Source: a virus
Taxonomy: Duplodnaviria > Heunggongvirae > Uroviricota > Caudoviricetes
Length of the DNA stretch: 10,891 nt
Strand: one strand, 5' to 3'
IMG/VR virus record: IMGVR_UViG_2541047778_000014
Of this stretch, positions 4,376 through 4,461 are shown piece after piece. Below the pieces are notes generated by a model. It worked only from the letters and a program-made list of their open reading frames with translations. It was not told the DNA's origin and did no database searches. Both the position numbers and the translations under genes were made by a program. The first letter of the stretch is position 1. Each line of letters opens with the position of its first letter.

Positions 4376-4421
4376 CAAACAAAAAAGCCACCGTTGCAAC
4401 TTAAGAGTCACTAACGGCAGC
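4376..4421 (-). terminator. candidate tR'-like intrinsic terminator immediately downstream of the Q-like gene
   Basis: Minus-strand RNA GCUGCCGUU-(17-nt loop)-AACGGUGGC followed by UUUUUUGUUU; 9-bp stem including two G-U pairs. The segment just downstream resembles what I recall following lambda tR'. The loop is large, so the call is tentative. Confidence 0.4.
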
Positions 4422-4431
4422 TTACCTTCTA

Positions 4432-4461
4432 ATTATGGCTAAATGGATAATTGCATGTCAA
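4432..4461 (-). promoter_or_regulatory. candidate sigma70 late promoter (pR'-like) overlapping the 3' end of the Q-like gene
   Basis: Minus strand: -35 TTGACA (plus 4456..4461), 18-bp spacer, -10 CATAAT (plus 4432..4437). The -35 lies in the last codons of the Q-like ORF; predicted start near 4425, directly 5' of the terminator hairpin. Confidence 0.4.

Follow-up and report, generated by a model that had tools for sequence, protein, structure and literature searches.

The window analysed here is a stretch of 10,891 nucleotides from a virus of the Caudoviricetes (IMG/VR record IMGVR_UViG_2541047778_000014), and the locus of interest is the nin-Q-lysis junction of a lambdoid prophage. The Q gene occupies positions 4439-4957 on the minus strand. 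Upstream of Q, also on the minus strand, are ninB, ninX, an antirepressor-like gene, ybcO, rusA and ninH. Downstream of Q, past a terminator referred to as tR', the same strand carries the holin gene S (3519-3842; Pfam Phage_holin_3_1), the lysozyme gene R (3059-3535) and the spanin gene Rz (2625-3062; Pfam Phage_lysis), followed by terminase. The names of S, R and Rz follow the annotation of the same sequence in phage CUS-3. These three genes (2625-3842, minus strand) would be the first late genes under the control of a switch located between Q and the holin gene. The window is 99.8% identical to CUS-3 (CP000711) over positions 121-6726 and 100% identical over 3800-5000. Beyond position 6726, only one further short match was found, at 7046-7270. 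The limited extent of the match therefore indicates that the window comes from a related but different prophage.

Two further regions deserve mention in their own right. The first is an IS3-family element (7737-8950, plus strand) consisting of an orfA with an HTH_Tnp_1 domain and an orfB with an rve integrase core. It contains an ALIL frameshift pseudoknot (8018-8134, 120 bits) and occupies the place of ninA, P (helicase) and O in the CUS-3 record. The second is the spacer of ~530 bp between tR' and the holin gene (3843-4376, minus strand), which holds no convincing ORF. The same slot holds tRNA-Asn and tRNA-Thr in phages 21 and Sf6 and an HNH endonuclease gene in HK629. A tRNA scan of the window found none, and thus the tRNA cargo of phage 21 and Sf6 is absent here. 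A mosaic (recombination) junction lies directly after the U-tract of tR', and the CUS-3 record labels the two ends of the spacer bsq3 and bsq4, "boundary sequences". The spacer also contains a terminator-like hairpin at 4126-4143 on the plus strand (AGGCGTGTACCGACGCCT followed by CGTTTTACTT), which is antisense to late transcription.

The Q gene encodes a 172-aa late antiterminator of the Q21 family (Pfam Phage_antitermQ, PF06530, E 1.6e-25). The protein matches the Q21 chains 6jnx_P and 6p18_P of the PDB over residues 1-162 with an E value of ~1e-91. In the Pfam search PF06530 and DUF1133 were matched, and there was no match to the lambda Q family, PF03589. Residues 1-102 are nearly identical to those of Q21, whereas residues 103-162 have diverged. 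Q21 has His95 and Arg128, and the window Q has Arg95 and Asn128 at these positions; R113, A124, T125 and R127 of Q21 are kept. The window Q is also longer than Q21 by 10 residues (VKNLDMQLSI, encoded at 4439-4470 on the minus strand) because of a 1-nt indel just before the position of the Q21 stop codon. These last 10 codons read across the -35 element and the Q-binding element described below. Since VKNLDMQLSI is encoded by the -35 element together with both Q-binding subsites, this DNA has a coding and a regulatory role at once. The promoter spacer measures 18 bp here and 17 bp in phage 21, owing to another, separate insertion of 1 nt.

Another sequence, TTGCGTGGCTTTGC, lies at 4632-4645 on the plus strand, in other words on the antisense strand within Q, and agrees with the CII-binding consensus TTGYN6TTGY. 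Taken by itself, this pattern has no significance, as the window contains three matches against 2.8 expected. However, its codon offset equals that of the CII site and paQ annotated in phage 21, and for that reason the sequence is probably the antisense paQ promoter by which CII damps Q.

The late promoter, pR', overlaps the end of Q. Its -35 hexamer, TTGACA (4461-4456, minus strand), aligns with the annotated -35 of phage 21 pR', and its -10 hexamer, CATAAT (4437-4432, minus strand), takes the position of the phage 21 -10, AACACT. The two hexamers are separated by 18 bp and together match the sigma-70 consensus at 11 of 12 positions. The original prediction of a near-consensus promoter overlapping the last Q codons and stop was borne out at 4461-4432 on the minus strand, and the Q stop codon TAG (4441-4439) falls within the spacer. 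On both strands of the 10.9-kb window, pR' is the sole promoter match of at least 11/12. Dinucleotide shuffles of the window gave a mean of 0.15 such matches, and 13% of the shuffles contained at least one. On statistics alone, the match is therefore weakly improbable and only suggestive. What carries pR' beyond chance is its conservation and its homology to a characterised cassette. The predicted transcription start is the G at 4425 (minus strand), 7 nt after the -10, which is homologous to the annotated late start of phage 21 (position 1431 of the phage 21 locus, L005).

The spacer of pR' contains two predicted Q-binding subsites arranged as direct repeats at 8-bp spacing. The upstream subsite (QBEu), AATTATCC, lies at 4445-4452 on the minus strand with its core TTATCC at 4450-4445, and aligns with the phage 21 QBEu, ATTGAGCA. 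The downstream subsite (QBEd), ATTTAGCC, lies at 4437-4444 on the minus strand with its core TTAGCC at 4442-4437, and aligns with the phage 21 QBEd, AATGAGCA. Relative to the start, the QBEu core spans -25 to -20 and the QBEd core -17 to -12, which places a C at -21 and another at -13. The QBEd includes the Q stop codon and shares the first base of the -10. The two cores differ from each other at position 4, and at the QBEu of close relatives TTATCC and TTAGCC alternate (33 and 33 distinct combinations of Q and promoter). Just past the start is a -10-like sigma-dependent pause element (SDPE), TAAGCTG, at 4424-4418 on the minus strand (+2 to +8), which is identical to the annotated SDPE of phage 21. 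Its core, TAAGCT, covers +2 to +7 (4424-4419). This element had been missed in the original prediction. The minus-strand sequence across the whole switch reads cTTGACAtgcaattatccatttagcCATAATtagaagGTAAGCTGCCGTTAGTGACTCTTAAGTTGCAACGGTGGCTTTTTTGTTT.

The pause element runs into tR', a hairpin at 4423-4385 on the minus strand that shows no difference from the terminator of phage 21, for which the annotation cites PMID 1704887. Its stem, GCUGCCGUU/AACGGUGGC, is topped by an upper stem of 6 bp and a CUUA loop. The lower stem has 11 pairs, two of which are A-U pairs that use bases of the U-tract, and a 1-nt bulge lies above it. The U-tract itself, TTTTTTGTTT (U6-G-U3), lies at 4386-4377 on the minus strand. 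The hairpin and U-tract that had been proposed at 4423-4377 are thus confirmed by both sequence and folding. The folding energy, suggested earlier as a check, also agrees: the RNA from 4432 to 4370 folds into one long hairpin of -20.4 kcal/mol (z = -2.6), and only 1 of 200 shuffles was as stable. A built-in terminator scan of the window did not report this hairpin because the scan takes only loops of 3-8 nt on an uninterrupted stem; direct folding finds it. Counting G4425 as +1, the hairpin covers +3 to +41 and release is expected at about +45 to +49. The leader RNA would consequently be ~45-49 nt long, in line with the very short leader of about 45 nt that had been foreseen. In phage 21, too, the annotated terminator ends near +50.

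The palindromes CTTAAG and GTTGCAAC had been put forward as protein-binding sites, such as a qut-like element. In the terminator RNA they instead make up the upper stem and its loop. Their candidacy as qut sites was ruled out, as the binding element of the Q21 family sits in the promoter spacer (PMC6606751 and the phage 21 annotation).

How does this arrangement compare with the phage 21 cassette? The two show the same order of elements: a -35, two repeats 8 bp apart, a -10, a start, a pause element covering +2 to +7, and a terminator hairpin running from +3 to about +45-50. Alignment with phage 21, Sf6 and HK75 places the -35, the -10 and the start at homologous positions. Furthermore, 44 bases of the window (4424-4381, from TAAGCT through the stem and the first six Ts) are base-for-base identical to phage 21. 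It follows from this identity that the short leader is the normal phage 21 arrangement. Phage 21 differs in that it has the repeat core TGAGCA twice, compared to TTATCC and TTAGCC in the window, and a -10 of AACACT with a 17-bp spacer, compared to CATAAT with 18 bp. The Q proteins differ in the diverged C-terminal half and in the 10 extra residues that run through the promoter. Homology to phage 21 thus supports a pR'-type late promoter with a tR'-type intrinsic terminator directly after it, as originally predicted.

The late regulatory cassette of phage 21 was reportedly first characterised by Guo, Kainz and Roberts in 1991. In the complete phage 21 record, OL657228, the region after Q is annotated with a -35, a QBE, a -10, a late start, an SDPE and a terminator ending 50 nt past the start, and the annotation cites PMID 1704887 and 31455742. 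In locus L005 the start is at 1431 and the terminator at 1433-1480. For phage 21, this annotation and later papers are the source used here for where the polymerase pauses and for the mapped point of termination. The pR', QBE, pause element and tR' of phage 21 have all been characterised experimentally and structurally (PMC6606751, Shi et al. 2019; bioRxiv 10.1101/651190, Yin et al. 2019). Q21 needs two cis elements, namely a -10-like pause sequence in the initial transcribed region and a QBE between the -35 and the -10 (PMC6606751). Two Q21 protomers bind the direct-repeat subsites TGAGCA, and the C:G pairs at -21 and -13 are required (PMC6606751). Within the RNA exit channel, one of the protomers takes the shape of a ring; single-stranded RNA alone can pass it, so that terminator hairpins are prevented from forming, and purified Q21 together with GreB gives ~10-fold more read-through of 21tR' (PMC6606751; bioRxiv 10.1101/651190). 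For phage 21, it has been demonstrated that transcripts from pR' pass tR' when Q is present and that the polymerase pauses and terminates when it is not (PMC6606751).

Taken with the alignment, these studies make it highly probable, at roughly 0.93, that the feature is a phage 21-type late-operon control cassette of a P22-like (CUS-3-like) prophage. The anatomy, the identity or homology to phage 21 and the conservation can be read in the sequence itself, and the mechanism is carried over from the phage 21 work. In particular, we infer the start site, the pause, the termination point and the Q dependence in the window phage by homology. In this model, sigma-70 RNA polymerase would start at pR', near G4425, and sigma region 2 would re-bind TAAGCT at +2 to +7, resulting in a promoter-proximal pause of the polymerase. 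When Q is lacking, the polymerase would resume, transcribe the hairpin and U-tract, and release the leader of ~45-49 nt, and the lysis and morphogenesis genes would remain off. Once Q has accumulated, two protomers, bound to the spacer repeats TTATCC and TTAGCC, would dock on the polymerase complex during its pause. At the RNA exit channel, one of them would then form a ring through which RNA passes only when single-stranded.

The conservation of the cassette was surveyed in ~400 loci of the Q21 family, which were gathered from IMG/VR together with six annotated phages. The IMG/VR queries were the window Q, Q21, and the Q proteins of Edwardsiella GF-2, Providencia PSTCR7lys and HK639. Two single-protein scans gave only loci that were 97-100% identical, and the more diverse loci came from querying with GF-2, Providencia and HK639. 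Of the 373 loci with a recognisable Q, 338 have a TAxGxT element preceded, at a distance of exactly 12 nt, by the end of a T[G/T]..C. repeat. In most of the others the distance is kept and the hexamer is TAGGTT; a few show a gap of 11 nt, and several run into a contig edge. Counted by distinct combination, the pause hexamers were TAAGCT (97), TATGTT (27), TATGCT (16) and TAAGTT (11), and TAGGTT occurs too. The register of the pause element is kept even in the divergent leaders examined.

A natural leader swap is seen in HK629-type loci (L004, L008, L014 and others), in which, ~30 nt past the Q stop, an unrelated leader is joined immediately after the -10. This leader keeps TATGCT at +2 to +7 and has a separate GC-rich terminator, AAGCCCACCTCCTGTGGGCTTTTTT, ending near +65. 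Judging from these sequences, the swap supports the register of the pause element. Most of the leaders folded across the family open with a hairpin whose 5' arm holds the pause element.

Does the window Q read the same DNA as Q21? H95 and R128 are two of four Q21 residues reported to contact bases (PMC6606751), and both are changed in the window Q. Across 161 distinct combinations of Q and promoter, the residue at 128 (Q21 numbering) goes with position 2 of the repeat: Arg with G in 85 of 85, and Asn or Lys with T in 76 of 76. Likewise, the residue at 95 goes with position 6, with Arg paired to C in 80 of 80 and His, Tyr, Ile or Leu paired to A in 81 of 81. All four combinations of the residue classes occur. 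When 128 is Arg, the downstream repeat is TGAGCA with His, Tyr or Ile at 95 (phage 21, SE10 and HK639), TGGACA with Leu at 95 (Providencia type) and TGAGCC with Arg at 95 (GF-2). When 128 is Asn, the repeat is TTAGCC with Arg at 95 (the window, Sf6, HK75 and HK629) and TTAGCA with Leu at 95 (Providencia-like). Lys at 128 together with Arg at 95 goes with TTACCC in a few IMG/VR loci.

The coordinated differences of Q and repeats from Q21 lead to the view that the window carries an "Sf6-type" specificity variant of the Q21 family. In other words, the window switch is most likely a distinct specificity variant of the Q21 machine, to judge by the paired sequence changes. In an earlier comparative paper, "Sf6" already stands as a separate predicted type of Q specificity (PMC2629481). 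A stronger form of this idea, for which we put the chances at about even, is that the Q and QBE of the window (Arg95 and Asn128 with TTAGCC) would be orthogonal to the Q21 pair. Under such a family code residue 128 would read position 2 and residue 95 would read position 6, and the natural pairs with TGAGCA, TGAGCC, TTAGCC, TTAGCA, TGGACA and TTACCC would be non-cross-reacting switches built on one scaffold. This covariation might be the sole new part of the case.

The alternative that survives best, although we consider it unlikely, is that the change from TGAGCA to TTAGCC is neutral drift and that the window Q has the DNA specificity of Q21. As drift would allow, little or nothing separates the window from phage 21 in the first 102 residues of Q, in the pause element and in the terminator, and R113, A124, T125 and R127 are retained. 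The association between residues and repeats could also partly reflect co-inheritance, because no more than ~130-230 bp separates the recognition codons from the repeats, and the two would move as one mosaic block. A crude neighbour-joining tree, which is only indicative because the Q gene is mosaic, contains only a handful of independent lineages. However, two of the four reported base-reading residues are changed (H95R and R128N). Moreover, the association is perfect and factorial over the 161 combinations and spans several clades, including Providencia-type proteins that are only ~61% identical to the window Q. The earlier listing of Sf6 as its own specificity type also speaks against drift. 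A specificity variant of the Q21 family thus remains the preferred reading of the window pair.

The terminator hairpin has its own record of conservation. In the 15 distinct variants of the compact terminator, pairing is kept in 94.5% of the pair cells, compared to 31-70% in slid registers. Two pairs show changes on both sides, which lends modest covariation support to the hairpin, mostly from one divergent sequence. The T-run after the stem is 5 to 8 long among relatives. The segment TCTTAAG (4400-4407, minus strand; alignment A2 columns 20-26), which forms the loop and upper stem, is invariant in the 15 variants, and the stems vary. The sequence (GAC)TCTTAAGT is also present in some Providencia-type leaders, whose first hairpin lacks a U-tract and has a second terminator after it.

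Such invariance raises a second possibility, namely that the constitutive leader of ~45-49 nt also acts in trans as a small RNA. This would be an added function rather than an alternative to the late switch. In Stx phages, the pR'-tR' RNA is processed to an Hfq-binding regulatory sRNA, StxS; its authors propose that such RNAs may be common and list phage 21 among the phages making them (PMC7547250). A further point in favour is that the RNA segment UCUUAAG recurs in the Providencia-type leaders whose first hairpin lacks a U-tract. However, the leader is almost wholly terminator hairpin with no obvious single-stranded seed, and the pause element that overlaps its 5' arm constrains this arm in any case. 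An Rfam search of 3800-4470 at E of 1 or less returned no family for the leader or the 530-bp spacer, and a search of the whole window at gathering threshold matched only the IS3-type frameshift pseudoknot, away from the leader. A role in trans is therefore improbable on present evidence.

Least probable, and very unlikely, is the reading that the hairpin and U-tract are simply the end-of-operon terminator of the early-right (nin/Q) operon and the promoter hexamers a chance match in a coding end: the hairpin starts 16 nt past the Q stop and would also halt unmodified upstream transcripts, and shuffled windows do yield such hexamers at the 13% rate given above, but the hexamers occupy the annotated -35 and -10 positions of phage 21 pR', and the spacing of -35, repeats, -10 and pause stays fixed even where Q stops before the -35 (phage 21, SE10 and yong1) and where the leader has been replaced. 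The role of an early-operon terminator and that of a late switch are not mutually exclusive, and the phage 21-type cassette could serve as both.

What does the identification of the cassette offer? As regards mechanism, it adds nothing beyond phage 21. Its use lies in genome annotation, as the "boundary sequence" after Q in CUS-3-like prophages can be named a late-gene switch. The 95-base cassette was found in 751 of 5426 complete E. coli genomes, which puts CUS-3-like prophages in ~14% of them. The switch would also govern any cargo placed between tR' and the lysis genes, such as the tRNAs or HNH endonuclease gene of relatives. In addition, the table of residue-to-base covariation provides testable predictions on how Q21-family proteins read DNA and could supply orthogonal antiterminator/promoter pairs.

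Among known systems, StxS of the Stx phages is likewise a short constitutive RNA made in lysogens from an antiterminated late promoter (PMC7547250). However, StxS is a 74-nt Hfq-binding RNA with a seed that is cut from a longer leader (PMC7547250), whereas the window leader is little more than the terminator hairpin. With lambda, the cassette shares its logic: a constitutive late promoter, a QBE between the -35 and the -10, a pause close to the promoter that depends on sigma, and a terminator in the leader that Q-modified polymerase ignores (PMC6606751, PMC9388147). The proteins are not shared, as the lambda Q family (PF03589) is unrelated to that of the window. Lambda also requires a -35-like element that is absent from other lambdoid late promoters (PMC6606751), and its leader is 194 nt long, a figure taken from the original prediction, compared to ~45-49 nt in the window.

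The closest relatives lie among the lambdoid phages themselves. Sf6 (AF547987), HK75 (HM173637) and HK629 (JQ182735) match 73-86% of the 3800-5000 query at ~97-98% identity. HK629 has the same Q, QBE and -10 joined to a different leader with a separate terminator. The Sf6 record labels the same variant "nearly identical to phage 21 late promoter" and carries "qut site" and tR' features, and in the HK75 record this promoter appears as pR' and this terminator as Tr'. In the CUS-3 record, the only label on the segment is "bsq4; boundary sequence". The suggestion that the locus could be the Q-utilisation site of a non-lambda Q family is thus right as to the family, since the protein belongs to PF06530, but the arrangement was already known from phage 21, Sf6 and HK75. 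The switch is real, and it is a known one: a phage 21-type late switch in the variant carried by Sf6, HK75 and CUS-3.
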